Positions 2,476 through 64,000 of a stretch of 64,000 nucleotides of DNA are shown here, one piece after another (position 1 is the first letter of the stretch; every line of letters starts with the position of its first letter). The stretch comes from Marsupella aquatica (lineage: Eukaryota > Plantae > Marchantiophyta). The notes below the pieces were generated by a model. The model did not search any database and was not told the origin of the DNA. It saw only the letters and a program-made list of their open reading frames with translations. Location of the stretch: positions 6,968,963 through 7,032,962 of the forward strand of contig OZ316893.1 of the NCBI GenBank assembly GCA_973895155.1. The letters run 5' to 3'. A program made the position numbers and the translations under genes.

Positions 2476-3579
2476 TTACGTGTCCGACTTGGGAGGCTGA
2501 TCCCCGAGGTACTGCTGATCATAATTCCATAAGGACCCTGAGTACTTGATGGAGTAGCTATCGGACTGACTGGCTGTGGCCAAGCTGTCTCCTGCTGGAC
2601 TCCAGAAATTAGGATATTCATAAAACATCTGGTCGAATGCAATCTCAGCTGCAGGTAACCGAGAAATTATTGGTGTGTCAATCTCAACACTGAGGCTCTG
2701 AAACTCCTCGTCGATACTAAGGTCGATGCCGTCTGGCTCCTGCTGCTGTTGCTCTTGGGATGGCTGGACAGAACTCTCAGTTCCTGAAACTTCCTCTGTC
2801 CGTTCGCAGTGAACTTGCACGTCTCCCAGTAGCCCAACGTCAGTAGCAGGCACGTCTGGACCAGTCCTCCAATATCGATCGACAACAGTTACAGAGACCT
2901 GCTCTTCTTCTAAATGAACTTGGACCCGATCGCTACCTCTCCTCGCAGTGCTGCTGCTAGTGTCTGCCCTCAGCCAAGGTACCAGTGCCACACTATCCAG
3001 ACCAAAGCTGTTCGACGGGAACGAATCATCCTGCGCTCGTAGATGGCTCTGTACCTCACAGGAATCCGAGGCTCGCTTTCTGTGTGCCATTGGAGGGTCT
3101 GAGAGAAGTGGAACGTCACCCAACGGGGACGGCCTCGTCATCGGATTACTGATTTGCAGATGCTCATGGTCGATAACAGACAATTCTGGCCCGGAAGAGC
3201 TGAAGCAAGAGGGCCCTGGTAGTCCCAGATTGCCTGATCCGCTCGCACGGCTCACTAGTGATCGAGCATCGGAAGTGACTGAGACGAGTGATTTGGTGTG
3301 CTTCCCTATCGCTGGTACAGCATTTCCAATTGCGGCTGCAGCAGCAGCAGCAGCAGAACCCACCGACTGGTACGCATCGGGAAAATTCAGCTTCGCATTT
3401 TTCCCTCTGAAATCGATTGCTGCTTTGTCATATGCTCGAGCGGCTTCCTCGGGAGTATCAAACGTCCCCAGCCACACTCTCGTTGCCTTCTTGGGGTGCC
3501 GAATTTCTGCTGCCCACTTTCCCCATGCCCTTCGACGCACTCCTCGAAATCGCTTTCGCTGCGGTTGAGGATCGGTCAT
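2476..3579 (-). CDS. AP2/ERF transcription factor, single AP2 domain, most like ERF group X (ABR1/ERF109-115 type)
   Basis: AP2 domain [57 protein letters not shown], followed by poly-Ala, Ser-rich and acidic C-terminal segments. First in-frame ATG is at 3579 (the ORF-track start at 3693 is TTG). A candidate acceptor (TTGCAG at ~3633) and donor (GG/GTATGT at ~3912) suggest an upstream exon or UTR intron, so the true start is uncertain. Confidence 0.92.
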
Positions 3580-11087: not shown

Positions 11088-11089
<2 letters not shown>

Positions 11090-12305: not shown

Positions 12306-12309
12306 TTCA

Positions 12310-14700: not shown

Positions 14701-15174
14701 AGCTTCGCTAAGGCATGCCTCTCCGAAGTTTCAGTGTGAGCTTTTTATCTGGAAGAGTTAGTGACTAACTAGTCACAAAGATGAGTTTATAGCCATTCAA
14801 ACAACTCTAGGTTTACACGATAGGATACTAACCATGCAGCAATTAGAAGCCACTCGCAATCGATGATGCTCGTCGTCGCACGCAACAGAACATCCTCGTT
14901 CCCTTAACAAAAGAACAAATTTATTGAAAAAGGGCAAACAAAGTAAACTTTACAAACAAAACTTAAGAAAACTTCATCATATCAAGTACGGAAGCGAAAA
15001 ATGAACCAGCAAGATTTGTATTCGGCCTCGAAACTACAACATGCTTCTCCACAGATGTAGCCCAGCAGCATACAGTATGTCGTAAATGTCCAACTGAGCA
15101 TGCCAAAGACAAAAGACTAGCACAGTTTCACCAGTAACTTTACCAAACCCTGCATCATGAAATTCGTCTCGGAG

Positions 15175-15328
15175 GTGATTTACGAATACACCACTCAAGA
15201 ATTTTATTGAAAATTGTTGCGGGACATATCAACCGCAATTACTGGATCCCAGTGATTTACGAATACACCACTCAAGAATTTTATTGAAAATTGTTGCAGG
15301 ACATATCAACCGCAATTACTGGATCCCA
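15175..15328 (+). repeat. 77-bp tandem duplication downstream of the GDSL stop codon
   Basis: gtgatttacgaatacaccactcaagaat...ttactggatccca occurs twice with one mismatch. Confidence 0.93.
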
Positions 15329-15571
15329 AAGTTAACTAAAGGTCATACTAGATCACAGCCCTCAACCTGAGACTCGTGTGTTAATTTCTCTGATTCGATC
15401 TACCTTCTTGGTTGTGAGCCTTTGCTAGCGATGCAGGTTAAAAGCGTTGCCCAATGAGTCTTCCAAATTCAAGATAAAGGGATGTGTGATTTTTTCATAT
15501 CCTAATGAATGATCACTTGTGGACGAATTCTTCAAAATTCCATCCGCAAATAAAATACTTCCCATATCTAT

Positions 15572-15798
15572 TTAGGCGGCAGCCAACTGTCGAAGATTGA
15601 CTGGATAGATAACTGATGTGTCACCACTCCAGAGGGAGTCGGCAATTATGTGATAGGCCCTCTCTGTTAGGTGGGTGAAGTCCCAGTATGCGTACTGTTC
15701 CACATTTTTGCAAAGAGTGTAGTTCCCCACGCCGCATTGAGGAATTCCTCCGTCGTACAAGCCACTTCCACAACAAGCGGTGTTTCCTGATGTAAATC
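15572..15798 (-). CDS. GDSL lipase exon 5 (catalytic DxxH)
   Basis: Acceptor ttacag; FTSGNTACCGSG...YWDFTHLTE...YPVNLRQLAAA*. Confidence 0.93.
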
Positions 15799-18700
15799 CT
15801 GTAAAACACACAAATTGTTACACGTCCGTTGTCCTAGTGAAAGACATCAGATGCGCGCGTCCAAGTGCACATAACGTTTGATACCTTCGTGCGAATTCAG
15901 TGCTCATAGCATGCAACTCAAAAGATTGGGTCATTCATTTGGTTTTTGCGAGGCAAAAAAGAAGAAGATTGGGTCGAGCTTGTATATGTGGTTGATAACA
16001 ACTTACATTTACCTGGGGACTCTATGATCATACAAATCTGAAATCATGAAGTTGAATGATGAAAAAAGATTGGTTCGCCTACATAAATGATGTACAGACG
16101 GCCCGACGCATCTTTTAGAAATGAAATGGTTTGAGTGGATACCTAGGACAGTGCCGTTTTCAGTTATTGTGTAGGCAAGTTGGTACGTTGTCCCCAAGAC
16201 GATGCTCTTTGTCTTCAACTTCGCGTTCATAGCCTTCACGTAAGTCAACAAGCTAGCGTCCACTTGTCGGGAAATGTTATTCAGGATTTCCAAACATGCG
16301 CCTTTTGACCCTATTGAAGCTAACGCCCGAGGTACACACCCAATGGGTCCCATGCCCCCGATGAATATTTTCTGTGCTCCGGTATCGATGACGGTCTGCA
16401 CCCGTAAAAGACAATGTATATAGTAATGTCCCGTTTATATGGGATACAATGCCCCCAGGAAAGAGAGTTCAGCTCGAGTTTAGAGGGGCTACTATTGCCC
16501 ATAGTGCTTTGGAAGCAGGTCTTTATAGACTTAAATTCATAATAGATTTTGACTTTTACTAATTTTAGTGCAAGCAGAGGAGGGTCCTCCTAAAGTGATC
16601 GAATACTTGACCGAATGCGAAAAATCGAAAGAGAGAAATCAGGAAGGGCATTAGAATTAATAGATATATCGATACTTGTAGTCCCCATAGCGGGCCTCAT
16701 AGGAGCGAGATGGCCAGATCTTCACGAATCTGACAGCGCAGGTACAGGTGTGCAGTCCCGTGTGCAGTACTTCATGAACGTCGTCATGAATGTGGAAAGG
16801 ATATCACTGCATTGCAATTTCGGAGGCAAATCTGTGGAAATGAACTCGCACTTCTTGCCCTGTCGGACTACCGAAACTGTTGTTGTTAGGCTAAACGTTG
16901 TGAACTTTTCATGTACAGGCATGATGGCATGGAGTTCTCAATGACGAATCAGGAACGGAATGGGACGCTGCACCGATCAAACTACTGAGCTACCTTACGA
17001 ATTGGAATGAACTCCCACGATGTTGTCTTCAGCAGTGATGCCCTAGAAGGGCTGTTCCCTTGAATCGGAGCAAGATAGCGACACAACAACAGTGGATAAG
17101 TTGCGTCATACAACTCGAACAAGAAATATTAATTTGGAGAATGGTACGTTCAAGTCGAGAAATGAATGGAAAACGACAAGCAGGCCTAGTACTCTCGGTA
17201 CTTCTGTGTAAACCTCCCAGAATTTGTACCTGGATATCTGTTTGGAGTTTGGAGACGAGCAACGAAACATATTGTTCAACCGAGTATTGCGCTTGTAGGG
17301 TTGTGTTCGAGACGTACTCCGAGACATCATTGTTGCCCGTAACGAAAACGTAGAGTGATTCCTCTAAGATTTTAGAAGTCTCATCATGTCCAAGACTATT
17401 TTGGAGTTCTGCGATAACTTTCAAGTAACTTTTCACCTGAACTGACAAATTGATCACACCCTGCAAGGAATATGACCACCGGCACCCGCGTTAAGGACTA
17501 AGGTTGAGAGGAACTTCAGCAATTGATGTAACATTACAGCGATCTCAGTACTTGGTGTTTTGTAGATCGTGATTGTAACATGATCAAAAAGCAACTGTCG
17601 CCTATCGACACAAATCCCAGTGTGAGCACCACCTAAGTTAGCACAGTGCTTACAAGGAATGCCATCACTTGGTTTAACTGAGAACCGAATATAAATTACC
17701 TCCCATAAAAATGTGCTGTCCAAAATTCCGCTTCCTGCTGATGCAAAATTGACGCCTTTTTTGAATCTAGTAGGATCATCCGAGTCGGGCATGAGGTATG
17801 GCTTAGGAAACGGCAGCGAGAGATACTCCGCTGCAAGACCATCAAAACAACATCCAATTCAGTGCATGAATACTCGAAAATTGTAGTCGATGCGCGTTAA
17901 ACATTCGCACCATCGATTTACAGGTGATAAATAAAGAGGCTAAGAACAACGTCCCATTTTCGTTGCTCATCATGGAAAATGAGCAACGAAAATCGCGCGC
18001 GACAGCCATCACTAAGTCCCCCATCTCGCGCGACAGCCATCACTAAGTCCAACTGCCGTCCTCCAAATCGTGCACGAGGTGGTGAGTCCATCACCTAATT
18101 AATAGAATAATAGCACCATGATAGCAAGCCCTTGGTATTTCAGGATCACGCTGACTTAATTAGATATAGATCTGAGTACAGAGATCCCAAAATAGACAAC
18201 ATTGCAGTTTCTTAGGCAAATTAGGAAATGGAGCGAAGTGGATATCCTTGTCCCTCCTTCAGTTCCCCTGCATAGTTGAGAATCTGATTTCGGAAAGTAA
18301 AACGTCTAATTCCATAATTGAAATCATTTTAAATCTGTGTAAAACGTAATCCTAAAAATACCTGTACCTAGTGGGAGAACAGGCAGTGAGCAGTTGGGGG
18401 AATAGACCAAGCTCTTGAATTGTTAACTAAAATCGAAATCCGACCCGCCAGCAGGCTTTGAGTCCGTCAGTTCTTAACTAGTAGACTAAGCACTGTTGCT
18501 ACCCAAGGATATTAAAGTCAGCTAGTCCAGATGCGCATGACTCCAATAGATGTATATCTCCGACACAGTTTGTTAGGACTGGAACACATCCACCCTTGCC
18601 TTTCTATCACGCACCGTTTTAGTTCGCTTCATAGGTCTTGCCACACGGACTTGCCAATCACATCCTTGAAAACTCTGTAGTTTCGGAACGGAGCTCATGA

Positions 18701-18985
18701 CTCACCTATGAAGTCGAAAATGAGCCGGCCATTGCACCATCGCCCAGTGGGTTTGTGAAAGTATGTCTCTCCATATGGAACAAAATTGGCTACTGGAAGG
18801 AGTGGGAACCCTTTGATATAATTGTTGTTGCCCGCGTCTACAACAGAATCCCCGAATATGAACAAGGCAGGAACTTCACATTCCCACTCTTCCAGAGAAC
18901 GACTCTCGACAGCTACTCTAAGATGCAGAAGGCCGAACAGGAGCAAAACGGCTGGCAGAGAACTACCCAATCTCATCATCTTCAT
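15572..18985 (-). CDS. GDSL esterase/lipase (SGNH hydrolase), secreted; 5 exons: 18706-18985, 17700-17830, 17230-17460, 16143-16395, 15572-15798 (373 aa)
   Basis: Hydrophobic signal peptide; FIFGDSVVDAGNN (block I), GRWCNGR (block II), GVNFASAGSG, TGNND (block III), CCGSG and WDFTHLTE (block V, DxxH). All four introns are GT-AG and the exon lengths sum to 1122 nt in frame, the classic plant GELP 5-exon layout. Confidence 0.95.
16143..16395 (-). CDS. GDSL lipase exon 4
   Basis: Acceptor gtgcag; TVIDTGAQKIFIGGMGPIGCVP...ENGTVLG; donor GTATCC. Confidence 0.92.
17230..17460 (-). CDS. GDSL lipase exon 3
   Basis: Acceptor ttgcag; GVINLSVQV...TGNND...LQTDIQ; donor GTACAA. Confidence 0.92.
17700..17830 (-). 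CDS. GDSL lipase exon 2
   Basis: Acceptor ttgcag; AEYLSLPFPKPYL...GVNFASAGSGILDSTFLWE; donor GTAATT. Confidence 0.92.
18706..18985 (-). CDS. GDSL lipase exon 1 (signal peptide, GDS motif)
   Basis: MKMMRLGSS...FIFGDSVVDAGNNNY...RLIFDFI; donor G/GTGAGT. Confidence 0.93.
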
Positions 18986-20854
18986 TGCTGCACACCACAG
19001 ATGATTGTTCACGCAGAATTTATCCTCGCCTTATATGTAATCTCAATCCGCCTAGCATATCAATTCTACCCCGTCCCTCGATCTAAATGTGGAAGTTCAC
19101 CCTCCCGCAGACGAGAATTTAGCTCTTCTGAGGATACCTCAGCTCAGTGCCTCTGAGAGTACCAATGTCTGGAAGAAAGCGATTTACCCAGAGACCGTCT
19201 CGTGCAAAAGTCAACAACGCGTACGTTCAAGCTAGGCTTCTAGATTTGAAAGTGGCTTCCTATCATGGCGACTTTTCAATGACGTGCCCGGAACAAGTAG
19301 CTCGTCCCCACGTAGGGGACGGGGTAGGGGATCCCTTTCCTTGGCCAAATTAATCCTGTCTAGTGGTGCAAGCTACTGTACTGCGTGAACGCTATTTTAT
19401 TCACTCGTCAATAAGTGAACCGAAAATCCTGGGCGGGATTTTGGGTCATTCACGAAGAGATCCTTCTGGTCCCACCGGTTCCTCCACGCCCACCATGAAG
19501 TGCTCCCAGAGTCCCAGCTCAGGAGGTGAGGCTACACTGCAGAATTGACCGACAGAACTGAAAGTCTGCCATGGACACACTGTGAGGTACCCGCCGGTGT
19601 CGCTCCCGCTGCTGCAGTTTAGCTGCCTTGTCTTTGGTCAGTTCTCTCCTGGTCCCGACCTCACCGGTTTTCTTGGCACCACGACCTTCGGTTCATCCAG
19701 GTACGTCTTGTGTTCTACTGTAGCTTTTCTATAAGAATCTCAAATGAATTTTCCGAGAGCTGAGATTTTTCGATTTTTATTTTTATGGGCAGCAGACAGC
19801 AACAGGTGAAGGACTGAAGGTGATTACAGTAAACATACTGAGTGAGTGGAAGGGTAAGGAACCTCTTAACTAAGCCCAATGAGTAATCTGCCACAATTGA
19901 AAAGTAGCCGGTCATTAAGGAATGAGGCTCAGCGGGACTCTCCAGGTAATCCGGTGATTGCAGGATTCGGGCGAAAGCCGAAGGAACCGGTTGGCGATGT
20001 GTCTCAAATCTTCATAATTGTAGATGACTTCACAGTTGTAGAGGTGGCTTTTGGCCATACACAAATGATCATAACTTATTTGCCACAAGGCTGTATAAAA
20101 GTTTTTTTTTGTTCACTAGCCACTACAGTGACTAATGGTCAGGGCAATTGACCAATCTTTATGGCAAAAAGGGGGATTATGAATTTTGTCATCCACAACT
20201 GTTTATGAAAGTAACCTTTTGAGATTTCGAGACAACAGCTATCACGCTGCCGCTCATTCGGGGGAATGGGGGTGAGTTGGACTCTGCAAGTGCGTAGCAA
20301 TGAAACATTGAATTGTCCTGACTGCCTGATTGATGCCAACGCCGCTTTGGCATATGCCATCAATCATACAATCTGCTTTTGCCTTTGAAAGCTGTAACCA
20401 AGACCGTTAAAGTATGTGGAGACCTTGGGGCCTTGGGAGTTGGGGGGAATGCCTCTACTCGTCGTTTATGATAACTTCCTGTATGTCCCTTCCGCTGTGA
20501 AGGCTTTGGCGTCGTTAGTTTGACATTGTTCCTGGTTGACTGTTTGACTTCGAAATTTTGTGATTTTGTGACGTTCGCGCAAGTTCCTTCTTGGTTCGTT
20601 TTCGGTTAAATTTTCAATCTACTGCGACTCCTGGGCCTTTCCCACCTTGTGCTTTTTCTGGAAGTGCAATTTCACTCTTGACAAAGGTATCTTGAACTGG
20701 GCACCTTCACAACAGCATAACAGAGTTCAACTTAGGCGCATGAACTTTCGTTAGATGATTCAATTTGCCAAATATAGTCGTTAGACTATCTTTGTATATT
20801 AACATACGCTATCAATATTTTGAGTTTCGATTTGAGCATCACTGCCCAAATCCT

Positions 20855-43146: not shown

Positions 43147-46100
43147 ATGGCGACTACTAGGATTGGAGGTCAAAGGTTGAGGTGGAAAAATTTGATGGTC
43201 GGATGGACTATACAATGTGGGAACGTAACATGAGGGATGCACTTAGGGCGATGGGCCTAGGCAAGGTACTAAGATCTCAACCCAAGGAGATGGAAGATGA
43301 TGATTGGCATGATCTTCAGGATCAAGCGGTAAGCATTGTTGGAATGTACCTGAAAAACAATGTGAAGAAGCAGTTCGAGGAAAAATCAACACAAACGGTG
43401 ACGGACTTGTTTCAAGCATTGTGCAACAAGTACTACAAGAAGGAGATGTCAAACCGAATGTATGCAAGCCTGAAGCTCATGCAATTCAAAATGGCTGATG
43501 GAGTCAAGATTCAAGATCATATTGATCAGTTCAATGATCTTGTGGTTGACCTAGAGAATTTGGGGGAGCATTTGAGCGAAGAAAAGAAAGCCTTACAACT
43601 CTTGAGCTCACTACCACCTTCGTACCAATCTTTGTCTCGAGTTCTTCTATTCCGTGATAAGATAACTATATCCTACAATGATGTGGTGAGTGCCCTGTTG
43701 ACCGATGACATGCAGTCTAAGTTGGTTTCTTCAGCTCATCCTACCTCAACCTCATCATCAACAGCACTAATGGTAGAAAGAGGCAAATCAAGGGAGCCAT
43801 CTCATGAAAACAAAAGGTTTAACCCACTTCCCATGGAGCGAGGAAGGTTCCACGACCGATCTTTTGGTAGGAGGAGGTTTAGATCCAGATCTAGATCTCG
43901 ATCCAAATCACCATCCAAGTCTACTCGTGAGATAAAGTGTTGGAAGTGTGATAAAGTGGGCCACATGAAGAAGGATTGTCGCGTCAAAGACACATTCAAG
44001 GAAGTTGCCGGTTCTTCAGCCCAAGTAGTTGTTCGAGAAGAGGATAGTGAAGGATTTGCATTGTGTACCACTTCCCAAGTTGAGGATTGTCAATGGATTT
44101 TGGATTCCGCTTGTTCGTATCACATGTGTTATATGCGTGAATTTTTCTCATCCTACACTCCTATCAACGGATCTGTTTTGATGGGAAATAATCATTCTTG
44201 CAAAGTTTTAGGGATTGGATCCGTAAAGATTTAACTACCTGGTGGCAAGTACGGTACTCTATCAAATGTCAGACACATTCCAGAAATGTGTAAGAATTTG
44301 ATTTCTCTTGGCTACTTGGATGCGAAGGGTTATCAATAGAGTGCAACTGATGGGGTGTTAATAGTCACGCATGGATCAACTGAAGTTCTTATTGGCAAGA
44401 GGAAAAGAAACATCTATGTCTTGGAAGGCACCACCCTTCCTACCGAAGTCAATTTGGTCACATCTCAGGAGGAGAAAATCAATTTATGACATGCTCGGCT
44501 TGGTCACATGAGTGAAAAAAGTTTGGAAATTTTACACAAGCGACATCTCCTACCAGGATTGCAAGCATGCAAGTTGAGTTTTTGTGATCATTGCATTGTC
44601 GGCAAGAAAACAAGAACTCCATTTCCTACTGCTATTCATCATTCTAAAGTTGTACTTAAGTATATTCATTCCGATGTGTGGGGTCTTGCTCCGGTTTCCT
44701 CACATTCATGCAAACAATACTATGTATCATTTATCGATGATTACTCAAGGTTTGTTTGGATTTATTTCATTGCCCATAAGTTTGAAGTGCTTTCCATCTT
44801 CAAACAATGGGTAGCTCAAGTTGAGACACAGACTGCAAAGAATGTGAGATATCTACGATCAGATAATGGTGGTGAATACACCTCTGGCGAGTTCAACACG
44901 TATTGTGCAAATAAGGGAATTACTCACCATCTCACAACTGTGTACACTCCTGAGCAAAATGGTGTTACTCAGCGACTCAACCGCACATTGTTGGAGCGAG
45001 CAAGGAGCATGTTGAGCCACTCTAAATTGCCACAAATCTTTTGGGCGGAAGCTGTGAACATTGCTGCTTATCTAGTAAATCTCTCTCCTAGTCGAGCAAT
45101 TACTTACAAAACCCCCTTTGAGTTATGGCACAATCGACCTGCTGATTATTCAAAGCTTAGGGTTTTTGGCTGTGAAGCATATGCACATGTTCCTAGCAAC
45201 AATAGGACTAAGCTAGATCCTAGAGCCCAGAAATGTATTTTTCTTGGTTATCAGCGTGAAGTTAAAGGTTATCGATTGTGGGATCCAGTTGATTGCAAGT
45301 TACTTGTTAGTCAGGATGTATCCTTCAATGAAGAAAAATCATTGAAGGAGGGGGAGATAGATCAATTCCCTACTACTAACAAAGAGCAATCTCCTCCTCT
45401 AGAGGATTTAAGGGGAAAGGATGTGTCAGATGAAGAATATGTTGACACCACTGTAAGGCAAAGCACACTACAATCAGATCAGCCAGAGTCTTCAGTGCGA
45501 AGAGGAACTCGCAAACGTCAAGCCCGAGAAAGGTATGGAACTTGGCTTCCTTCTGATCAAGTGGATTTGGATGAAGAATCTATTGATGCATTGGTGACAG
45601 AAGATGGAGATCCATCCTCATTTTGAGAGATCCTAGCTTCTATGGAGAAGCAACAATGGCAGGCGGCGATGCACATGGAAATGAAATCATTTCATGATAA
45701 CAAGACTTGGGAACTCACAAGTCTACCTAGTGACAAGCAGGCTGTTGACAGCAAGTGGGTGTATATAAAGAAAGATGGACCCACGGAGGATGCTGAGAAG
45801 ATATTTAAGGCTCGGTTGGTAGCCAAGGGTTTTACTCAACAGAAAGGTATAGACTACAATGAGGTTTTTTCACCCGTAGCAAAGCATTCAATAATACGTT
45901 TGCTATGTGCTCTTGTAGTTTTATTTGATCTAGTTTTAGATCAAATGGATGTTGTCACGGCATTCTTATATGGATCGTTGGATGAGGTGATTTACATGAG
46001 GCAACCAGAGGGTTTTGTACAAAAGGGCAAGGAAAATTTGGTATGTAGATTGCTAAAATCCTTGTATGGATTAAAGCAGAGCCCAAGGCAGTGGAACAAG

Positions 46101-47179
46101 CGTTTTGATGAATTTTTGAAATCGCTTGGATTTGTGCGAAGCGTGTACGATCCATGTGTTTACATCAGGCGTGTGAACAACACAGGTTTTAAGTTTGTCA
46201 TCCTTGTACTTTATGTGGATGACATGCTCATTGCAGCAAAGGATAGGGGCGAAGTTGATAAGCTTAAGGCCCAACTCAGTTCTGAGTTTAAGATGAAGGA
46301 CTTGGGCATAGCCAAGAGGATCCTAGGCATGGAGATTGTCAGGGATGTGAACAAAGCCAAACTTTGGCTAACGCAAAAAAGATATGCAGAGAAGGTGCTC
46401 TCAAAATTCAACATGGCAGATGCTAAGGCTGTGAGTGTTCCTTTGGCAAGGCATTTCAATATTTCTGCAGCATTTTGTCCATCGGATGCAACAGAAAAAA
46501 GTTTGATGTCCAAAGTTCCTTATGAAAGTGCTGTGGGCAGTTTAATGTATCTCATGGTATGCACTCGACCAGACATAGCTTATGCCGTTAGCAAGGTAAG
46601 CAGATACATGGCAAATCCAGGAAAAGTCCATTGGGAAGCAGTGAAATGGATTTTGCGCTACATCAGAGGTTCCACTAAGAAAGGTTTATTGTTTGATGCA
46701 AGTTCAAACAATATGAAAGTGCTTCAAGGTTATGTGGATGCAGACTACGCAGGTGATCTGGATAAGAGGAGATCAACAACTGGATATGTATTTACACTTG
46801 CTGGTGGATGCATTAGTTGGAAGTCTACTCTCCAAAAGTGTGTTGCAAAGTCTACTATGGATGCCGAGTATGTAGCGGCAGCAGAAGCAGCATCAGAGAC
46901 CATTTGGTTGAAAAAGCTTGTCAAAGAGATGGATTTATCACAAGATTCTGTGTATCTTCATTGTGACAGTCAAAGTGCAATTTACACTGCCAAGAATTAG
47001 GTGATGGATGGCAGGGAAAGCACATTGATGTCCGCTATCATTTCATCCGACAGGCATTATCGGATGATGAATTTGAGCTTGTCAAGATTGATGGAAAGCT
47101 TAATCCAGCGGATGCTTTTACCAAAGTATTAGACTCCAATAGTTTTTCAAGGCATTGTAATTATTTACAAATATTGTAA
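43147..47179 (+). pseudogene. disrupted copia gag-pol polyprotein
   Basis: EKFDG gag start, CWKCDKVGHMKKDC zinc knuckle, WILDSACSYHM protease, IHSDVWG and RSDNGGEY integrase, LYVDDM RT, YVDADYAG RNase H. Stops at 44232, 44337, 44487, 45624 and 46998; frameshifts near 43175 and 47017. Confidence 0.95.
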
Positions 47180-50019: not shown

Positions 50020-51062
50020 TTTGTGGTTGTCATAGCCAGTGTTTTGTGCAATGATATCTTTTATCCAAGAATTGTTCTGTGCAAGGAGAAAAAGGAAAAA
50101 AAGAAAAGGGACTTTTGTGGCTGCCTTAGCCAATATTTTGCACAATGATATCTTTCACTCAACAAAAGGTTTTGTGCAATAATATATTTTAACAAATTTA
50201 TTTATTTATTCAACGATATCTTTTGCACCATGATCTATTTCTCAACAACATCTTTAACCAAACAACATATTTTATGCAACGCACGGGGATTGAAAGGATA
50301 GTGACAGAATGGTCATCTTTGCTAAACCCTAAACCCTAAACCTGAAACCAATAATATAATGTTGCGCCAATGTATACAGTGGTCGCCAGTCAAACGCGAG
50401 TACATTTTGGGTTAAAAAACAAAACAAAGAAAAAGACTTGCTCCTTCTCTCCTTGACTTATTACTTCATAACATCTTTCACATAACGACAACTTGGGTGA
50501 AACAACACCTTTTTTCTTATAACATCTTTTACTTCACGATATCTTTGGTAAAATGACACCTTTTTCTTATCAACATGTTTCACATAATGACATCTTTGGC
50601 AAAATGACTTCTTTTGTCTTAACAACATCTTTTTACTTCATGACATCTTTCCATAACAACATCTTGGGCGACACCACATCTTCTTTCTTAACAACATCTT
50701 TGTGCAACGCATGGGTATTTTCCCTCTACAATGTCTTGGTCGACACGACATCTTTTCCCTCAATGACATCTTTGCCAACATGACATATTTTTTCTCAACG
50801 ACATCTTGGCTGACATGACAATTTTTTCTTGACGAGATCTTGGCCGACATGACATCTTTTTTCTCAACTACTTCTTGGCCGACACGACATTTTTTTTCTC
50901 AACAACCTCTTGGCCGACACAACATCTTTTCTATCCACGACCTCTTGGCCGACATGACATCTTTTCTCTCAACGGCCTCTTGGCCGACACAACATTTTTT
51001 TTCTCAATGACATTCTGGCCGACATGACTTCTTTTGTGCAATGCACGGGTATATTGAGCTAG
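50020..51062 (+). mobile_element. non-autonomous Helitron-like element with ~33-bp minisatellite
   Basis: 3' end gtgcaatgcacgggtatattgag-CTAG|T; internal hairpin copies at ~50275 and ~50702; array unit tcttggccgacacgacatcttttttctcaacgac. The 5' boundary is approximate. Confidence 0.72.
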
Positions 51063-52090: not shown

Positions 52091-53365
52091 CTAGCTCAAT
52101 ACCTGTGCGTTGCACAAAATAATTTGTGTCGGCCAAGATGTCATTGAGAAAAAATGATGTGCGTTGCACAAAAGATGTCATGTCCGCCAAGATGTCATTG
52201 AGAAAAATGATGTAGTGTCAGCCAAGAGGTCATGGAGAAAAAAGATGTAGTGTTGCCTAGGAGGTCGTGGAGAGAAAAGATGTCGTGTTGCCCAAGAGGT
52301 TGTGGAGAGAAAAGATGTCGTGTTGCCCAAGAGGTCGTTGAGAGAAACGATGTAGTGTCGCCCAAGAGGTCGTTGAGAGTAAAGATGTCGTGTCGCCCAA
52401 GAGGTCATTGAGAGAAAAGTAGTTGTGTTGGTCAAGATGTCATTGAGAAAAAAAGATGTTGAATTGGCCGAGAGGTCGTTGAAAGAAAATATGTAGTGTC
52501 AACCAAGAGGTCATGGAGGAAAAAGATGTCTTGTCGCCCAAGAGGTCATTGAGAAAAAAAGATGTCATGTCGGCCAAGAAGACGTTGAGAAAAAAAGATG
52601 TCGTGTTGGCCAAGAGATCATTGAGCAAAAAAATGTCATGTCGGCCAAGAAGTCGTTGAGAAAAAAGACGTTGTGTCGGCCAAGATGTCGTTAAGAAAAA
52701 ATTGTCATGTTGGCGAAGATGTTGTTGAGAAAAAAACGTTGTGTCGGCCAAGACATCGTTCATGGAAAATACCTGTGCGTTGCACAAAAGATGTTGTTAA
52801 GAAATAAGATGTCGTGTTGCCCAAGAGGTTGTTAAGTGAAAGATGTCACAAAGTAAAAAGATGTCTTAAAAAAAAGTAGTTTTGCCAAACATGCCATTGT
52901 GTGAAAGATGTTATTAAGAAAAAGGTGTCATTTTGCCAAAGATGTCGTGAAGTAAAAGATGTTAAAAGAAAAATGGTGTTGTTTTACCCAAGCTATCGTT
53001 CTATGAAAGATGTTATGAAATAAAAAATCAAGGAAACTAAGAAGGAGTAAGTCTTTTTCTTTTTCTTTGTTTTTGTTTTTTTACCCAAAATGCCCATGTA
53101 TTTGAATGGCGACCACTCTACATTGGAGCAACGTTATATTATCGGTTTCAGGTTAAGTGTTTTAGGGTTTAGCAAAGATGACCATTCTCTCTATATCCTT
53201 TCAATCCCCGTGTGTTGCATAATAGATGTTGTTTGGTTAAAGATGTTGTTGAGAAATAGATCGTACATGGTGCAAAAGATAATCGTTGAATAAAAATAAT
53301 AATTGTTAAAATACATTATTATACAAAAACTTTTGTTGAGTGAAAGATATCATTATGCAAAATAG
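52091..53365 (-). mobile_element. non-autonomous Helitron-like element, inverted paralogue of 50135-51062 with a longer minisatellite
   Basis: Plus strand reads a|ctagctcaatacctgtgcgttgcac, i.e. a minus-strand hairpin plus CTAG|T. The non-repetitive part 53040-53365 is the reverse complement of 50135-50450. Confidence 0.75.
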
Positions 53366-54835: not shown

Positions 54836-55049
54836 TTCAGCAGATGGATATTCACTCGCGTCGACTCCCCAACAGACACATCGACGAGTGCTTCAGCTTT
54901 GCTCCTTACTGTGCGTGCACCTACTCAACGGTTTCCTAGGCTGGCGGTTGGTGCCGTTTCTCGACCTGATGTGGTGGGCTCTCTCCATCGCCTCCCCTTT
55001 CTTTTCACATGCCTTGGTTGGGCCTTTTGTTGCTTCTTGATCGCTCGTC

Positions 55050-58000
55050 ATGTCTGCATTGAGAGTGTTGGCGCGGGGCAAGCGCCCAGCCCCACCACCC
55101 ACTTCTCCCCCGTCCTCCCCCCCCCCTCGTGGTCGTCTTCGTGTTTGCTCTTCTTCACTGGATCTCTCTCATCTTCGTGATGACCCCCTGCCCGATGCTC
55201 TGCCAGTCCCCCCAGTCTACTGCCCACCCCATCGTCGCCCTGGCTCCTCTCCCCACCCCATTCCCCCTCCACCCATTTCCCATCCTCCTCCGGCCTCCTC
55301 GTCCACATCTCTTCAACCCCCACCTCCTGTCCAATCTTTCCCTGCTCCCTCCCCGGATGAGCATCCCCTGCATACTTGTCATGACTGTGGATGGGTGGGC
55401 ATCTCCCTCCCTCATCATCGCGGGCGGGGGCGGTGCCATCGTCGCCAGCAAGCACAATCCCAGCCCCAGCCCCCTATTGACCCTGTTAGCTCTGCCCCTC
55501 CCTCCTTGGAGGCTCCCGAGCAGGCATGGAGTTGGGTTCGCACTCTAGACCCCCTTCCAGCCTATCATCCAGGGTACATTAGACCTCGCCTTTATAACCA
55601 CGTTCCTCTGGCGTTGCGCCCTTTAGTTCGGTCCTCCTTGTTGCAGCTCATGCAACTTATCTTGGCGCATCCTATGGAGGTCTCCTACTGGTCTTTACTG
55701 ATGCTTTTTCCACAGTGGACTCTTACCCTCCCTAGTCATGGTGGTCGTGTGGGTCACTGTGAGACTGCTTCTCGTATCCATCGTTTTTTGTGGGGAGATT
55801 GGGCGTAGCTTCAGGAAGAGTACTTTCGTCGCGCCCGGTCTTTTACCGCCCGTGCTTTCTCTGACCCAGCTCGCCACTCTCATCCTCCTGAGCATAGACG
55901 TCTTTGTCGCTCTTGTCGTTTAGCCCAGGCTGGTGAATATCGTCGGGCTGTCCAGGCCCTTTCTCCCACCACACCAGCCCCCCTAGCGAGGCCACCTCGA
56001 CGGCCCTTCAGGATCTCCATCCGCAACCCCATGATCAGCTCCCTTTGTTCGTAGAGGATTTTGAGCCTGAGGAGGATCTTCAGTTTAGTGGAGACCACTT
56101 CATCTATGCCTTCCTCCATGCCCCTCGTTGCGCTGCTGGTGGCCGCTCCGGCTATGTCTTTGAGCATTTTCGTGATTTATTCCCCCCTGAGGATCCTCAG
56201 TCTGGTTTTCCAGTCTTCTCCTTTTGCCAGTGTATTGCAGCCGGTCGTTTGCCTTCTTCCGTCTCTCGGCTCTAGAGTGCTTCTCGTTTATTGGCCTTGG
56301 CTAAGTCTTCACCGGGTGTTCGGCCAATTGCTATTGGGGAGGTTTTTCTTCGTCTGGTGTCTCGCACACTTTCCTCGCAGTTTCGCTCTGCACTATTGGA
56401 TCATCTCTCTCCACATCAGTTTGCAGTGGGCGTTCCTGGCGGTTATGAGATAGTTATTGCGGGTATTCGAGCTACCTTGGACCTCCACCCTGATTGGGTT
56501 GTCCTCCAGGTTGATGTCTCTAACGCTTTTAATACGGTTTCTCGGGCAGCCATTTTTCGTGCTTTGAGGGCAGCGGATCCAGACATCCAGTCCCTGATCC
56601 CCTTTGTCCATTGTTTTTATGGACTCGAGGCCCCACTCTTCTATAGTCATCACTCCTCTACCGGAGTGTATACCACTCTTTCTTTTGCAGAAGGTACACG
56701 TCAGGGTGACCCTTTGGGTGGGCCTCTTTTTGCCATTGCCCATTTTACAGCTTTACGGGAAGCCGCCATGGCCCACCCCCAGTGTATCTTTCCCTCCCTT
56801 TCAAATGACACCCACATCATTGGTCCTCCTACCGCGGTTACTTCTGCCCTCGCCACTCTTTCCACCCATTTGATGGGCCTCGGTTTACGAGTTCAGCCTG
56901 TGAAGAGTCGTGCATGGAGTCCAGCTGGGTTACCCTCTGATCTTGCGCTTCCTCCAGGGTTCTTACGTCTAGCCGATGGTCTTCGGGTCCTTGGCTCTCC
57001 AGTCGGTACCGCCTCCTTTTGCTCATCTTTCATCGCTGACGCTCTACAGGCCGCCTTAGCCCCTACTCCTATGCTCCCTAAGTTAGCAGATTCTCAGGCA
57101 GCATTTGGGATGTTGTTGAGGTGCATCCACCCTCGTGCGTCTTATCTAGTTCGGACGCATCCCCCTACCAAGGATCTTTGTCTCCACCTTCGAGCATTTG
57201 ATGTCTCCATTCGTGAGACTCTGGCCTCTCTTTTAGGGCCAGGTACGTTGCTCTCATCTCCGTGGCTTCATCGACAACTCGATCTTCCTATTTCGCAGGG
57301 TGGTTTTGGTCTTACTTCCATTGAGAGCCTTGCACCTTTGGCCTTTTTGGGTGCGTGGGCGGCCGCCTTCTCATTGTTGGCCGATCGTTTCCTTACTGAG
57401 GATCGCCCTTTTTTACTTTCATCTCTCATGGAGGTAGAGGAGGGTTCCCTCCCGTTTCAGGTTCATTTGCGCGCGGCGCGATCATCATTACCAGATCCCG
57501 TTCGCGCTGCGTTACCTTCTTTTCAGGAGTTTTTATCCTTGGATCCCGTCCGTCTTCAGGCAGACCTCGCTGGGCGTATGCACGCTTTCACCCTTTCCAG
57601 CATCCTCTCCGAGGCACCTGACACAGACCGAGCTCGGATTCTTTCTTCCGGAGGGAAGGGCGCAGGAGGTTGGCTTTAGGCCAATCCAGTCATTCCTCAT
57701 TTGCGGATGTCTTCAGCGGAGTTCTCCACAGCCATGCGTCTTTGTATGGGGCTGCCCCACCCACTTCTTGCAGGTTTACCTCCTTCTTGCACTTGTGGGA
57801 AGCCTTGTGATGCCACAGGTGTCCATCTTCTTCGGTGCAGTTTGGGAGGTGAAACCATTACTGTTCACGATGCGGTGCGCGATGCGACTGCTCAGGTTCT
57901 CTCTGGCTCTTTGGTATGCGTGTGACGGGAGGTGGTACTCGAGTTACCTGGTCCTCCATCCCAGCGGTTACGGGTGGATCTTACTATGGTCCGTGAGGGT

Positions 58001-58441
58001 CAACGTACTTTGGCAGATGTAGTGGTGGCAAACCCATTGCGCCAAGACATCCTTGGGACAGCGGCAACAACGGCAGGGGCAGCAGCATCACGTGCGGCAA
58101 CAACGAAGGAGGCCAAATATGCTACACAAGCTTCATCCGACAGCTTCCTCCCCCTTGCTCTGGAGCTCTTCGGGCGTCTTCATCCTCAGTTTGATGGGCT
58201 TCTTCGGCAAGTTTCCCGGGATGTTCATGGCCGAATGGGTCCCACCGGACCCCCGCTATCTATTTTGACCACGCACTTTCGCCAACGCATTTCAGTCACC
58301 TTACAGCGTGCTCAAGCTCGGGCCATCTATCGTCGATCTCTTACAGTGGGTGCTAGTGTGCCTCCGCAGCGGCTAGCTCCCCTAGAGGATGTTCCAATCC
58401 CACTTGTCGATCTAGTTTTGACCCTTGATGTGGACCATTAG
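55050..58441 (+). pseudogene. disrupted ORF of the CRE-like element: Pro-rich N-terminus, C2HC finger, reverse transcriptase, CCHC knuckle, RLE
   Basis: Motifs CHDCGWVGISLPHHRGRGRC; VRPIAIGEVFLRL; HQFAVGVPGG; VDVSNAFNTVSR; GTRQGDPLGGPLF; PSLSNDTHIIG; LPISQGGFGL; CTCGKPCDATGVHLLRC; HDAVRD; RVDL..TLADVVV; KEAKY; FLPLALELFG. Stops at 55806, 56273, 57677 and 57923; one frameshift at ~55980. Confidence 0.9.
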
Positions 58442-59035
58442 CTTTTTGTCACATTTGCTACGAATGATGTGGACCTTGGTCCGGTTGGGTTAGTTTTAGT
58501 CCCTCTTTCTTGGTTTTTAGGGGTTCCCTATTGCTCATTTCTTATTTTTAGTTCCTCTTTTTTGGTGTTTTGAGGTTCCCTTTTGTTCACTTCTTTTAGG
58601 TTTGGGTTTGTCCACTTGGACCCTCTTTTGTTTGTTCTTGTGTACAGTGTTTGGTCCCTTTCTATAAAAAGTGTGTGTATATTACTTTAGTAGACTAAAA
58701 TTTCACATCGTCAATTAAATACAAAGTCCTTATAAAGATTGACTGGCTTGTCTTATAAGAAGGGGAGTTGCTCACCCGGGCAGTAACTGAGGTATGGCCG
58801 GGTACATAAGTATATATAATAATTTAATGGTTCAGAAAAATCCTTACAGGCTTCAGTAGCTACCTACACATATGCCCCACGTGCATAGGACGTACACAAA
58901 GTCACACCTATATATATATATATATATATATATGACCTCCAAAAGTCAGCCATAAGATCTTGCTGATAGGAGCACTTTGACAAGCCCTTCCACCAAATCG
59001 AGAAAGGAAAAACCTCCTTACAAATGAGTTTGAAG

Positions 59036-59160
59036 CTCATCCCTCTAGCACGGCAGAGATAATACCTCCTTATAAATTACTTTGATCCTCATCCCTCTAG
59101 CACGGCAGAGATAATACCTCCTTATAAATTACTTTGATCCTCATCCCTCTAGCACGGCAG
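59036..59160 (+). repeat. 52-bp tandem repeat, 2.4 copies
   Basis: Unit ctcatccctctagcacggcagagataatacctccttataaattactttgatc. Confidence 0.92.
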
Positions 59161-60911
59161 CTATGAGAGCATAAGTTTTTTTGCCTTGACAACCAAAAGC
59201 AGGCCCATCCAACAAAATCAGGAGCATGCATTTCTATGCAGGGTAGACAGGATAAGTTTTTGTTTCAAAGGTCCTTCTTAGTTGCTTTGGAGCTATTTAT
59301 TTTTTACTCAAATCAACTAAACTTTTTACCGTAAGTGTTAATGCAAGAATTAGCATTGATGTTACTAACACTCATTTTGATAAAAGAGATTTTGAGTCCA
59401 AGTAACACTAATTTTTGTGGGTTTTTCAAAATTGTTAGTTTTCCACTTTTGTGTAAGTTGCTAGTAGAACATGGAATGATTCTTGTATATTTTGGAGTGG
59501 ATTTTGCAGAATAATTTTTTTTCCTCTATGTTTCCACTTTTGAGACCATAATAACACTAATTCATATGCACGGAAATAGTGTTAATCTCATAGTATACTA
59601 AAACGCAATCAATAACTGTGGGTCCATTGTCTAGTCCATTATCTAGAGTGCAGCCTTTACAGGTGCCTCTAAGTGAGGGCATAACTGAAACTGCCTGCCT
59701 ATATGCGCCTATATGCAAGAGTGAGGGTGCAGACAAAAAAACATGGATGGGCGATGATGGGCCCAAAGATAAGCAGGTACACTTTCTAACTAACATAACA
59801 TGATCTTTTGTCTTCTTCTCTATTGAAGTTCAAGGAACAAGGAAAATCCTTTGTTCTGCCGATTTAATTTTTCTCCTATCTTTATTTGCATTGGAGAAAC
59901 GATTTTTTTTCTTGATGGGGTAATCAGGCTAGTTAAAATAATAAAACTTCGCCCAAGTCAACTGTATGATGTGGTCGGTGTATCATCTTATCGGGGTTGG
60001 GGGTCGGCGGTGTCCAGGAACGGTTCAACATGTAGCGAAGATGTGCCACAACGGCACAACTGTTCACCTCCAGCTTCTTCCTCCCTCAGACTACGTTCAC
60101 ATGGCGAGCGTAGACTGTGTCACTTCCCGGCGCTGAGTTTACCACCATGATTTGCAGCTAGAGGAGCTCCATGCATCAATTCGGCTGCGCCAGCTTCAAC
60201 CCTCGCCTGATTCTCCGCATGCACGGAGTAAGTCAAGCTTGTTTTCTCTCGGACAGCAAGAGATATATTGCAAATGACAAGATTTATTGCACATGCCCAC
60301 AGAGCGCAAAGGAGAGTGGAGAACCACATTTCCAGACTGCACTGAGGCTTGCTATATGTATTTCTGTCCTCAACTCGATCACATCTGTGAAGTTTATGAT
60401 GCTCATTGTTAGTCCTCCTGTAACCAAAACATTGCACCTTGAGAGTTCCCGAGTCTCACATCGTTACTGCCCAATGCCCTCGACTCCTCTGGGGTTTACA
60501 AGAAAAACTAAAACCCCCAACAAAAATAACGAGTCCGCTAGGGAATGAAGGTGAACTTTATTCAAAGTTATACAGACATTTTCCTCTGCTTCGAACCGAG
60601 GGTAGGATGGTCGGATTGCGTGGGGGAAAGGGCCGAGACATCCTACACACATTCACATGGTGGGCAACAGAGAACCATAATCTCCAATAGATATGAAACA
60701 AAAATACGGAAACAAAGATTTGTGAGAAGTAAAATGGTCTCAAGGAGCGTCCCCTGCTATCACTAACCTCGAAACCTTGAGGGCAAACAAAATGGACAGT
60801 CTTCTGAAGGAGCCGAACCAAGAATTCAGGTAGGCTCTCAACGTTGCGGCTCTGTCAGATTACTGTTCATTTGACAACATTTCTAAGGAAAACTGCAAGT
60901 TGTTCATTGAC

Positions 60912-61847
60912 CTACTGATATAATTCTGCTAGCGTAGCATCCAACCCCAACTCAAACGGGCTCCTCGTTTGATTCTTATCTAGCACCAGTAACTTCTGCA
61001 TCAGCGCCTGCGCCACTGGAGTCGCAACCAAAGCTGGGAAAGCAGCCAAGTCTGCCGCAATCACGCTCGCCGGGGGATTTAGCGATTGCAACGCGACCTT
61101 GGTCCCATGCAGCCCTTGCTCCGGCCTCAAGGCAATCCTCTTAGCCAACGCCAAAACAGTGTGCTCCAACTCCTTCCGGGTCCGAAAACAATCATTGAAC
61201 AAGCCAATCTCCTTCCCGGTCTTGCAGTGGACGCTATCCCCGGAGAGGAGATACTGCATAGCCCTCCCCTTGTTGATCAGCCGACCGAGATACTGCATCC
61301 CGCCTGCGCCCTGCGTAAGGCCAAGTGACGTCTCCAGCGACCCCATACGTGCTTTCGGGCCTGCAAATCGCATGTCCATCTGAAGAAGCCACTCACTGCC
61401 GGCGCCGGTTGTTTCCCCATTGAGTTCCCCGATGAACACAGTAGTTGTCAAATTTTGCAGTAGGCCAATCCCAGCCGTGTACAGTTGCAACAGAAGAGCC
61501 TTCTCAGGGGTCGCAGGGGCCAGAAGCGAGTTGATGTCGAGATGCGCGATGAAGAGATCAGGATCGCCGCTGCGAAAGATCACCACCTTGGGCGGTGGCG
61601 TGGTGCGGTTGGACGGATCTAGGGAGATTAGGAAGCCAAACAGATCCATAGCGACCTTCATGTCGAAGAGGTTAATTGGCGGGTTGTAGATAACTACAGT
61701 TGTTATATTGCCGGATGTGCTAATGGAGAGGGTGCCGTGGGGACTGATAGTGGGGGCCGTCGAAGAAGAGGCGGGAGGGAGGAGAACAAGGGCCACGAAC
61801 ACGAGTACTGCGAGATAAGGGAAAACTGGATTGCGATGCTGATCCAT
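60912..61847 (-). CDS. enoyl-CoA hydratase/isomerase (crotonase superfamily) protein with N-terminal signal peptide, intronless, 311 aa
   Basis: ATG at 61847 gives MDQHRNPVFPYLAVLVFVALVLLPPASSS. Crotonase motifs NPPINLFD, KVVIFRSGDPDLFIAHLDI, GETTGAGSEWLLQMDMRFA, LETSLGLTQGAGG and GRAMQYLLSG. Confidence 0.9.
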   Translation of the reverse strand: MDQHRNPVFPYLAVLVFVALVLLPPASSSTAPTISPHGTLSISTSGNITTVVIYNPPINLFDMKVAMDLFGFLISLDPSNRTTPPPKVVIFRSGDPDLFIAHLDINSLLAPATPEKALLLQLYTAGIGLLQNLTTTVFIGELNGETTGAGSEWLLQMDMRFAGPKARMGSLETSLGLTQGAGGMQYLGRLINKGRAMQYLLSGDSVHCKTGKEIGLFNDCFRTRKELEHTVLALAKRIALRPEQGLHGTKVALQSLNPPASVIAADLAAFPALVATPVAQALMQKLLVLDKNQTRSPFELGLDATLAELYQ

Positions 61848-62409
61848 TTTCAACTTCAGCGCAAGCGGCTGTTCCCAGTTAGTGCGAATTGAACGACACT
61901 TGGAGCTTGTTGCGTATCGCTGGAATCTTGTGAAAGCGTTCTCTAAATCTTGGTCAGAAGCCCTGCGAAGCAATCGGAACAAATCAAGTGCCTTGTCACT
62001 ACATAATTCACAAATTCAAATTCAAATTCATAATTAGACGAATTGGGCATTCTCCCGGCCGCGTAGGCTGACAGTAATAATGTAGCATCAAATATATCAG
62101 ACATCGATGGAAATTGCTACTTGATAATGGTGCTCGATCTAAGTGATCCCGGCCATGAAGTAATAAAATAAGCAGTCACCCCTCTGCAGCCTACACACCG
62201 CCTTACCTCGAACTGCAGCAACACCTGAGATCCGAGCTGTACGAGTCTGTTGGGCCGAAGCGCACTCGAAGCCTTGCAGAGATTTTCGTGCGCAAAATCC
62301 CGAGAACTGGTTCACACTTTCGAATCAACTTGAGAGAGTGACCGTCCTTGGACGAGGGACAATTCTAGACTGGCAGCTAATGGAAGTGCTACACTGACAG
62401 GTCTGTTAT

Positions 62410-62507
62410 AAGTAGCTCTTTCGCAGCCTCAAAGAAAAATATTGAAATTTATTATTACAAGTAGCTCTTTCGTAGCCTCAAAGAAAAATATTGAAATTTA
62501 TTATTAC
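62410..62507 (+). repeat. 49-bp tandem duplication upstream of the crotonase gene
   Basis: aagtagctctttcg(c/t)agcctcaaagaaaaatattgaaatttattattac occurs twice. Confidence 0.92.
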
Positions 62508-62745: not shown

Positions 62746-62969
62746 TGTGAATAGGTTTCAAACTAGAAACCCAGCCCAAAGAGTCATTATCATGTGTAAT
62801 AGTTGTGTGGGAAAAATATTACCAGGTAAGACTTTCCGAGCATAGGGTTATGGAAATGTGAATAGGTTTCAAACTAGAACCCCAGCCCAAAGAGTCATTA
62901 TCATGTGTAATAGTTGTGTGGGAAAAATATTACCAGGTAAGACTTTCCGAGCATAGGGTTATGGAAATG
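62746..62969 (+). repeat. 111-bp tandem duplication
   Basis: tgtgaataggtttcaaactagaa...gcatagggttatggaaa occurs twice, near-identical. Confidence 0.93.
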
Positions 62970-63033: not shown

Positions 63034-64000
63034 TGTTAGATATTGCTCTAGTCTTGTGACTCATGAACTAACTACAGTTAGGCTAACTTGGGTTGGGACT
63101 TAGCTAATGTTAGCGGTAGTGCTGTTGTGCATATAGCCAGGGCTGATACCAGACCCTGGTGGAACTTAGGCTCATTGTTACGGAGTTAGTTGAGAGATAG
63201 GGAGAGCTTGTGCTGTGGATGCTTGGTATGGCCGGTAGGCCTAGAGTGCAGTAAAGTTCTTGTGTGTTCCCGTGGACGTAGCCTCATGTGGAGGTGAAAC
63301 ACGTATTTCTCTGTGTCAACTCTTGTGCATTGGATGGTTCATGGGCTTGCAGTTGCGAATGTCGTCTATGCTCAACAAGTGGTATCAGAGCATGCCTAGG
63401 AGGTGACGAGGTTTTCTCATGACAGGTTCTTTCCAGCGTTCATTGTCGATGGTACATTCGGAGTTTCGTCGCATGAAACTCGAATGTGTGTGGCTGTGCG
63501 GATAGGTTAGTGAGAGGGCATTCTAACGGTGGTTAGAACTCGTTGATCGGTATCCGTGGTGCGGAGGAATTGAAGTTTGCGTCGTTCAGGGGTTATTCAT
63601 GTTCGACTTTATTTCGGGGGAGAGACCAGAGTTTGAGTTTTTCAACGGTGTGAGCTGTGCGATGCAGGAGGGATTGCACAATATAGCTCAAGTTGAAGGT
63701 TTATGCGAGCTGATCATTTCAGTAGCTGGATTGCTGCCGAGTTGTTACCGAGTGCGTCGTGACGAGTGAAGGAGACGTTCAGGTTTATGGAACTTGTTCT
63801 CATCTGAACCCGGTTTCTCTTCGTGACGTCCTACTCGATGAAAGAAACGCGAAGTGCTATGGCTCAACGGTTCAATTTCCTCACTTAAAACGGCGGCAAT
63901 TAGGTGAGTCTTTTCTTCACTTTTCCCGGGGGAGTATTTTTGGCATTTTAAGGGGGTTTAAAGGGCCAATATTTTTGTTGTGCACTCCCTCCCTTCGGCC
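63034..64000 (+). mobile_element. 5' part of a second LTR retrotransposon (probably copia): LTR 63034-63377, PBS 63380-63391, UTR running off the window
   Basis: TGTTAG...CAACA followed by a perfect TGGTATCAGAGC; the LTR is homologous to the solo LTR at 33128-33472. Confidence 0.9.

Follow-up and report, generated by a model that had tools for sequence, protein, structure and literature searches.

Well-supported fungal descent of a predicted secretory crotonase in the liverwort Marsupella aquatica

Crotonases are textbook intracellular CoA enzymes, and a leader-bearing subfamily with predicted glycosylation and both catalytic glutamates stands out among them. A gene of this kind lies in a 64,000-nucleotide stretch of the genome of Marsupella aquatica (contig OZ316893.1, positions 6,968,963 to 7,032,962; hereafter, the window). 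How did a liverwort come to carry it, where does its product reside and on what does it act? A preliminary description, made from the DNA letters alone, had reported an intact single-exon reading frame with two hydratase glutamates, the motifs NPPINL and S.DPD.FIAH.D and no C-terminal PTS1. All of these observations hold. The frame runs from ATG to stop in one exon of the minus strand and encodes 311 aa; E152 (in GAGSE) and E172 (in SLE) are present, as are both motifs, which mark a subgroup found in fungi and soil bacteria, and the C-terminus, ELYQ, is not PTS1-like. The protein matches Pfam ECH_1 (PF00378) with an E of 9.5e-16 and 58 bits, against a cut-off of 27. Among the 25 of 56 NCBIfam models listed, it reaches no cut-off, the best score being 66 versus 371 bits. 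An AlphaFold model, built on a 21-row alignment (pLDDT 87.5), has the crotonase fold, and its structural matches are crotonases throughout. The features of the window are collected in Table 1.

Table 1. Features of the gene, its predicted product and the surrounding DNA, in window coordinates.
Feature	Position	Strand	Basis or remark
Crotonase-fold gene, fungal descent well supported	60912..61847	-	one exon, 311 aa, ATG to stop
Predicted signal peptide, residues 1 to ~28	61764..61847	-	hydropathy
Span with four N-glycosylation sequons (N47, N80, N132, N292)	60966..61709	-	sequence
Oxyanion-hole loop FIAHLDI, residues 99-105	61533..61553	-	alignments to 2ppy, 5zai, 5z7r, 3pea
GAGSE motif, Glu152 (rat ECH Glu144 equivalent) and second oxyanion NH	61392..61406	-	alignment
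Glu172 (rat ECH Glu164 equivalent)	61332..61334	-	invariant, 195/195 aligned rows
Cys208 and Cys220, sole cysteines of the protein, candidate disulfide	61188..61226	-	row alignment
AP2/ERF gene, not part of the crotonase system	2476..3579	-	65% identity over 100% length to Calypogeia fissa
Multi-exon GDSL lipase-like gene, ordinary plant gene	15572-19030	-	weak Pfam hit E 0.008, one exon
Ty1/copia element	43203-47000	+	gag, integrase and reverse transcriptase, each in a frame of its own
High-copy host repeat, non-LTR-like ORFs (55050-58441, +)	54900..58850	.	no Pfam hit at E 0.001
LTR retrotransposon start, very high copy	63034..64000	+	LTR ~63034-63377; sequence and depth

The gene is set in plant DNA rich in transposable elements, as first described: high-copy host repeats flank it, and a copia element lies at a distance. 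Its neighbours within the window are repeats, the GDSL gene and the AP2 gene, with no secondary-metabolite cluster. The only full-length match of the AP2/ERF gene is in Calypogeia fissa, while matches in Marchantia, Riccia, Selaginella and angiosperms cover mainly the AP2 domain. As a host marker, this gene, with one annotated leafy liverwort for comparison, indicates that the host is likely a leafy liverwort other than C. fissa. Beside the LTR, positions 63380-63391 hold what we take to be a motif of the primer-binding-site type. Short tandem duplications lie on either side of the crotonase gene (59012-59160, 62406-62507 and 62746-62969, with units of 52, 49 and 111 bp), and arrays of 35-bp units at 50734-51035 and 52170-52847, apparently inverted, resemble the subterminal repeats of transposons.

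The gene is joined to these flanks by two contigs of the public run X1 that match the window perfectly. One (59394-60960, depth 12.8) reaches 49 bases into the 3' end of the gene, and the other (61698-62454, depth 14.7) crosses its 5' end. Other unique flank pieces in this run have depths of 13.8-15.9, and the adjoining host repeats are hundreds to thousands of times deeper. No single piece among the contigs listed spans the whole gene stretch. The gene also has kin in a second liverwort: C. fissa carries 12 family models on 7 contigs of 5.8-46.8 Mb. Given these models on megabase contigs and the flank-bridging contigs at the depth of unique DNA, contamination, which the preliminary description had raised against its own proposal, is very unlikely. 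One X1 contig begins with 744 bases that have no counterpart in the window left of 59394, and run X5 contains near-identical gene pieces (60997-61587) with almost none of the unique flank; together, they hint at recent copies or structural variation.

The C. fissa models include two tandem pairs. Near-identical pairing among the models suggests some six loci, each represented in two subgenomes or haplotypes. In the read data, many contigs of less than 95% identity stack on the coding region of the window gene, indicating that paralogues are present in the same samples. The two species are only loosely syntenic: on two C. fissa contigs, AP2 orthologues occur together with a tandem crotonase pair that is some 110-120 accession numbers away, and this AP2-linked pair is not the closest paralogue of the window gene.

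Homology searches retained 120 homologues from 7,739 candidates, and those named to species came only from C. fissa (6; 60-68% identity) or ascomycetes (37-50%). The best fungal identity was 54%, to the ericoid fungus Oidiodendron, and the best bacterial one 32%; a search of 1.84 billion representatives, whose matches carry no species names, left this ranking unchanged. Deeper members of the family occur in Oidiodendron, Pseudovirgaria, Peltigera, Xylona, Xylogone, Fusarium and the basidiomycete Mycena. Shorter relatives, among the 120 listed of 675, were fragments of 28-43% identity, none clearly liverwort-like. Arabidopsis MFP2 matched with an E of 3.8e-6, versus 1e-87 for fungal matches. 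This gap and the starred nesting in fungi reported below bear, indirectly, on the green-plant ECH clade that the preliminary description had set against its own proposal. Among prokaryotes, a scan with a eukaryote-weighted alignment found no relatives among 51 pattern matches; a bacterial-type query gave 573 matches, from which 80 loci were kept, and revealed a subgroup widespread in soil bacteria.

Relationships were reconstructed with FastTree (219 rows of 230-420 aa) and, under a mixture model, with IQ-TREE (46 rows: 8 liverwort-clade, 27 fungal, of which 21 are named and 6 were labelled by their FastTree placement, and 11 bacterial, of which 7 are named, one further bacterial row having escaped the ORF pattern; native plant crotonases were too distant to be drawn in). 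The two topologies agree. In the IQ-TREE phylogeny, the liverwort rows form one clade (100/99) within starred fungal clades of 23, 26, 30, 31 and 32 rows. Constraining the fungi to be monophyletic changed the likelihood by -69 log units and was rejected (AU p=0.00016). Thus, the crotonase gene was very probably transferred from a fungus to an ancestor of these liverworts. The horizontal transfer suggested in the preliminary description is well supported by the tree and the AU test; of the two sources it had named, fungi and actinobacteria, the phylogeny agrees with the first, narrowed to ascomycetes. Support for the sister group of the liverworts is weak (87/61), so that the donor can be placed only as a filamentous ascomycete. 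Oidiodendron, in spite of its highest identity (54%), is the sister group in neither tree. Ascomycetes colonise Calypogeia species (PMC7062687), which provides an opportunity for transfer without pinpointing the donor. A bacterial origin is not needed to explain the intronless state, since most fungal relatives are intronless as well: at 11 of the 14 loci checked (24 fetched), the match lies within one frame.

The competing accounts of this distribution are fungal contamination or mis-assembly, a vertically inherited plant gene lost elsewhere and a transfer from plants to fungi. They would draw on the ascomycetes that inhabit leafy liverworts (PMC7062687), on the fact that, among the contigs listed, none spans the whole gene together with a diagnostic host gene, and on the absence from other plants being the result of a word-based search. 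Against them stand the independent C. fissa assembly, in which the large contigs with the 12 models also bear AP2 orthologues, and the contigs that bridge gene and flanks at unique-DNA depth. Moreover, the liverwort clade is a tip in a deeper radiation of fungi, among them a basidiomycete, and the Marchantia, Riccia and Selaginella proteins in the searched database gave no homologue matches. We consider these accounts, taken together, highly improbable.

The transfer of fungal genes into liverworts is well documented and common, so the event itself is the less surprising part; a bryophyte species carries, on average, about 229 genes gained horizontally (PMC12513842). The liverwort genes RDS1, YANB, EUPF and FBT and the microbial terpene synthases described by Dong et al. 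2025 (PMC12513842) are fungus-derived, as the crotonase appears to be; the genes of that set are intron-poor, lie in LTR-rich DNA and often belong to specialised metabolism or defence. The words 'enoyl' and 'crotonase' are absent from the main text and one supplement of that study, and this transfer may already be tabulated in its HGT lists. A literature search, mostly outside subscription journals, returned no paper on a signal-peptide crotonase family, a characterised member of it or a liverwort crotonase. Uncharacterised crotonases have been noted in maleidride clusters (PMC8851701), and one is listed for an Aspergillus flavus cluster (PMC8618995); both are compared here by description only. 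What we describe is, therefore, a well-supported transfer of an uncharacterised, predicted secretory crotonase subfamily from fungi to liverworts.

The hydrophobic leader noticed earlier has the layout of a signal peptide, with a short n-region, a hydrophobic core at about residues 8-23 and a c-region of small residues; cleavage presumably occurs near residue 28, as placed by the small-residue rule. The Kyte-Doolittle maximum of the core is 3.5 over 11 residues, and all 19-residue windows past residue 35 are at or below 1.68. With its hydrophobic core, the leader does not resemble an organellar transit peptide, the outcome that the preliminary description had set against its own reading. To place these traits in the family, we aligned 11 liverwort-clade proteins, 111 from the fungal clade (Met-initiated, 280-365 aa) and 73 from the 80 bacterial loci. 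A hydrophobic leader was found in all 11 liverwort rows and in 97 of the 111 fungal rows, and in one of the 73 bacterial rows. Sequons followed the same pattern, averaging 4.2 per protein in liverworts, 4.2 in fungi and 0.2 in bacteria. No PTS1 or HDEL/KDEL C-terminus occurs in any of these liverwort, fungal or bacterial rows. The signal-peptide call is based on hydropathy together with these sequon statistics, and on this basis the crotonase is predicted, with good confidence, to enter the secretory pathway. Leaderless fungal members also exist (L098:6593-7525; protein P0159) and may be cytosolic.

As leader, sequons and intronless state are already found in the fungal relatives, they were inherited with the fungal gene. 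Of the secreted plant crotonase proposed initially, then, the predicted leader stands, but it is no innovation of the plants. The family that encloses the liverwort gene consists of ascomycete signal-peptide ClpP/crotonase proteins (Oidiodendron, Acarospora, Talaromyces, Mollisia, Pseudovirgaria and lichen fungi; 40-54% identity), which likewise have a hydrophobic leader and about four sequons and are mostly intronless. These relatives differ in lacking Cys208 and Cys220, and several of them belong to polyketide clusters, unlike the window gene with its surroundings of repeats. The cysteine pair occurs in 11 of 11 liverwort rows, in none of the 111 fungal and in none of the 73 bacterial ones, and is a liverwort novelty within the aligned rows. 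A disulfide between the two residues, suggested by the sequence, would suit an oxidising compartment.

Both active-site glutamates are kept in 9 of 11 liverwort, 110 of 111 fungal and all 73 bacterial rows. Work on rat ECH assigns catalysis to Glu144 and Glu164 and the oxyanion hole to Ala98 and Gly141; the CoA adenine moves the Gly97-Ala98 peptide to its functional position, and the CoA phosphates are held by Lys92, Lys101 and Lys282 (PMC13126182). The two backbone-NH positions of the oxyanion hole, in loop 2 and at the start of the active-site helix, are matched in the alignment by Leu103 and Ala149. His102 occupies the Gly position of the AGAD loop of CoA-dependent hydratases, so that the loop here reads AHLD; this His is found in 10 of 11 liverwort, 98 of 111 fungal and 73 of 73 bacterial rows, and Gly in none of the 195. 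Being common to the leaderless bacterial members, His102 is a marker of the subfamily and not of secretion. Lys is absent at the equivalents of rat Lys92 and Lys101 (mapped by counting from the motif), likewise in the leaderless bacterial members, and the CoA-dependent 2ppy, 5zai and 5z7r also lack it at the 101 position. Consequently, neither the His nor the missing Lys shows a loss of CoA use. More suggestive are three basic residues near the ligand site, at positions 107, 145 and 147. They are present in 65, 72 and 73 of the 73 bacterial rows, in 1, 84 and 4 of the 111 fungal rows and in 0, 2 and 0 of the 11 liverwort rows, and this stepwise loss of bacterial-type arginines would hint at a weakened use of CoA.

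The best matches in both sequence (E 3e-28 and 8e-22) and structure are 3h0u and 3gkb from Streptomyces avermitilis, which superpose on the model with Foldseek TM 0.77-0.79 and rmsd 2.1-2.6 A (VIA Z 31.9, rmsd 2.2 A over 265 residues). They share with the liverwort crotonase the PPxN motif, the H-x-D loop and the two glutamates, but are only ~30% identical, have neither leader nor sequons and are labelled 'putative' enoyl-CoA hydratases by their depositors. The C-terminal helices of the model are apparently 3h0u-like (rmsd 2-3 A), unlike those of 2ppy, 4fzw and 5z7r (rmsd 15-17 A). Canonical enoyl-CoA hydratases (rat ECH, E. coli PaaF; EC 4.2.1.17) are alike in fold, oxyanion-hole positions and both glutamates, but they have the AGAD loop, while the liverwort protein has AHLD, is predicted to be secretory and falls far under the NCBIfam cut-offs. 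A further fold match, at rank 30, is 6-oxocamphor hydrolase (PDB 1o8u; Z 24.9, rmsd 2.9 A, 240 residues aligned, 16% identity). Enzymes of this type are CoA-independent members of the fold that act on a free diketone by a retro-Claisen reaction with their own catalytic residues; they are a precedent for non-CoA chemistry, and 6-oxocamphor hydrolase is not known to be secreted.

The neighbourhoods of the relatives give further indications of substrate. In fungi, 58 of 90 ORFs from 7 loci were scanned, plus 7 more ORFs, omitting near-duplicate loci and three repeated PKS ORFs. Three contigs (L081, L095 and L096), with ~65-80% DNA identity to each other, carry a cluster of P450, BBE-type FAD oxidase, SDR, crotonase, 2OG dioxygenase and reducing PKS. 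At locus L091, the crotonase abuts the ketoreductase end of a PKS. A P450 and MFS transporters lie near the crotonase of L094, a P450 lies ~5 kb from that of L086, and the ORF scan found no secondary-metabolism neighbours at L098 and L101. In sum, of the 6 fungal locus types, two are beside a PKS, two have a P450, in one case joined by MFS transporters, and nothing further of this kind, and two have no such neighbours; the PKS-linked loci are not the nearest relatives of the liverwort genes. The cluster from P450 to PKS, at about 200-16800, was also seen in L085, and the N-terminus of its BBE-type oxidase is leader-like.

In bacteria, 33 of the 80 loci were considered, with 132 neighbours. An alpha/beta-hydrolase was found in 14 of the 33 and an epoxide hydrolase in 6, counts that come without a background control. 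A 3-hydroxyacyl-CoA dehydrogenase was a neighbour in 2 of the 33, and no match to acyl-CoA ligase, acyl-CoA dehydrogenase or thiolase was detected among the neighbours of these loci. Bacterial H-x-D crotonases (L018, L054, L057, L066, L073, L079 and others) are often beside epoxide and other alpha/beta hydrolases; isochorismatases, thioredoxin-like genes and cytochrome P460 genes are further frequent neighbours.

Taking these lines together, we give about an even chance to the liverwort protein being a tailoring hydratase or lyase of the secretory pathway that acts on a non-CoA specialised metabolite. The predicted leader would take the crotonase into the ER, where it would be N-glycosylated, and it could be delivered to the ER lumen, the cell wall or the oil body. 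There, Glu152, Glu172 and the oxyanion hole might act on a specialised metabolite activated by a carbonyl group, to which water or a proton would be added, or from or within which it would be taken away or moved; candidate chemistries are hydration, oxa-Michael addition, isomerisation or retro-aldol cleavage of a free enone, lactone or polyketide-like product. A fuller history, in which this branch left CoA chemistry, became a polyketide-tailoring enzyme of the fungal secretory pathway and was then captured by leafy liverworts, is proposed only tentatively. The oxyanion hole of ordinary ECH forms only with the help of the ADP part of CoA (PMC13126182), which gives cofactor-free chemistry a biocatalytic interest, and the subfamily is a good hunting ground for cofactor-free hydration or cyclisation. 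It also offers a candidate for missing steps of leafy-liverwort chemistry and for a gene without an assigned role in the conserved polyketide cluster of fungi.

The fungal origin and the secretory location would also suit an enzyme that, within the lumen of the ER, still acts on an acyl-CoA or another thioester and serves lipid or polyketide processing like any ordinary hydratase or isomerase. Both glutamates and the backbone positions of the oxyanion loop are retained, the superfamily mostly acts on CoA thioesters (PMC13126182, PMC8851701) and the maleidride-cluster crotonases, likened to ours by description alone, were proposed to act on acyl-CoA (PMC8851701). However, the protein has neither an HDEL/KDEL signal nor a second membrane segment that would retain it in the ER, the basic residues of the bacterial members are gone and the cell wall is not expected to hold free CoA esters; we regard this reading as rather unlikely. 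Another is that the protein acts outside the cell, at the plant-microbe interface, as a detoxifier or quencher of microbial enones, epoxides or fatty-acid signals. This would fit the hydrolase-rich bacterial neighbourhoods, which lack acyl-CoA ligase, acyl-CoA dehydrogenase and thiolase, the DSF synthases RpfF and DfsA, which turn up as fold matches level with many others (Z 27-28), and the ascomycetes living in Calypogeia (PMC7062687). Yet the bacterial relatives are only ~30% identical and have no leader, and the fungal members in PKS clusters appear biosynthetic, not defensive, so that such a role seems unlikely. The signal-lipid modification at this interface put forward in the preliminary description found no direct support, the fungal neighbourhoods favouring the tailoring of specialised metabolites.

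A non-catalytic secreted binding protein, or a duplicated family in decay, is a further reading, and the liverwort paralogues bear on it most directly. The codons of the paralogue contigs were counted in the best-supported contig rows only, leaving out three rows beside an indel pair. In this small and biased sample, 30 codons differ, of which 17 change the amino acid, a count that this reading can draw on, but 13 are silent, 16 of the 33 base changes fall at third positions and no stop codon occurs. Some C. fissa models are short and 2 of the 11 liverwort rows have Asp in place of Glu152; on the other side, Glu172 is invariant and the cysteine pair and sequons are found in all 11. Loss of catalysis or decay, therefore, appears quite improbable. 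For a tailoring enzyme of the secretory pathway, the paralogues may instead be diverging in substrate. Their variation is highest at residues 61-70, 101-130 and 261-280, segments that we infer to line or cap the acyl pocket. The two C. fissa proteins with Asp at the first catalytic Glu are CAM6085824.1 and CAM6091933.1 (P0007 and P0400), and the replacement may mark a change from hydration to isomerase-like chemistry in this pair.
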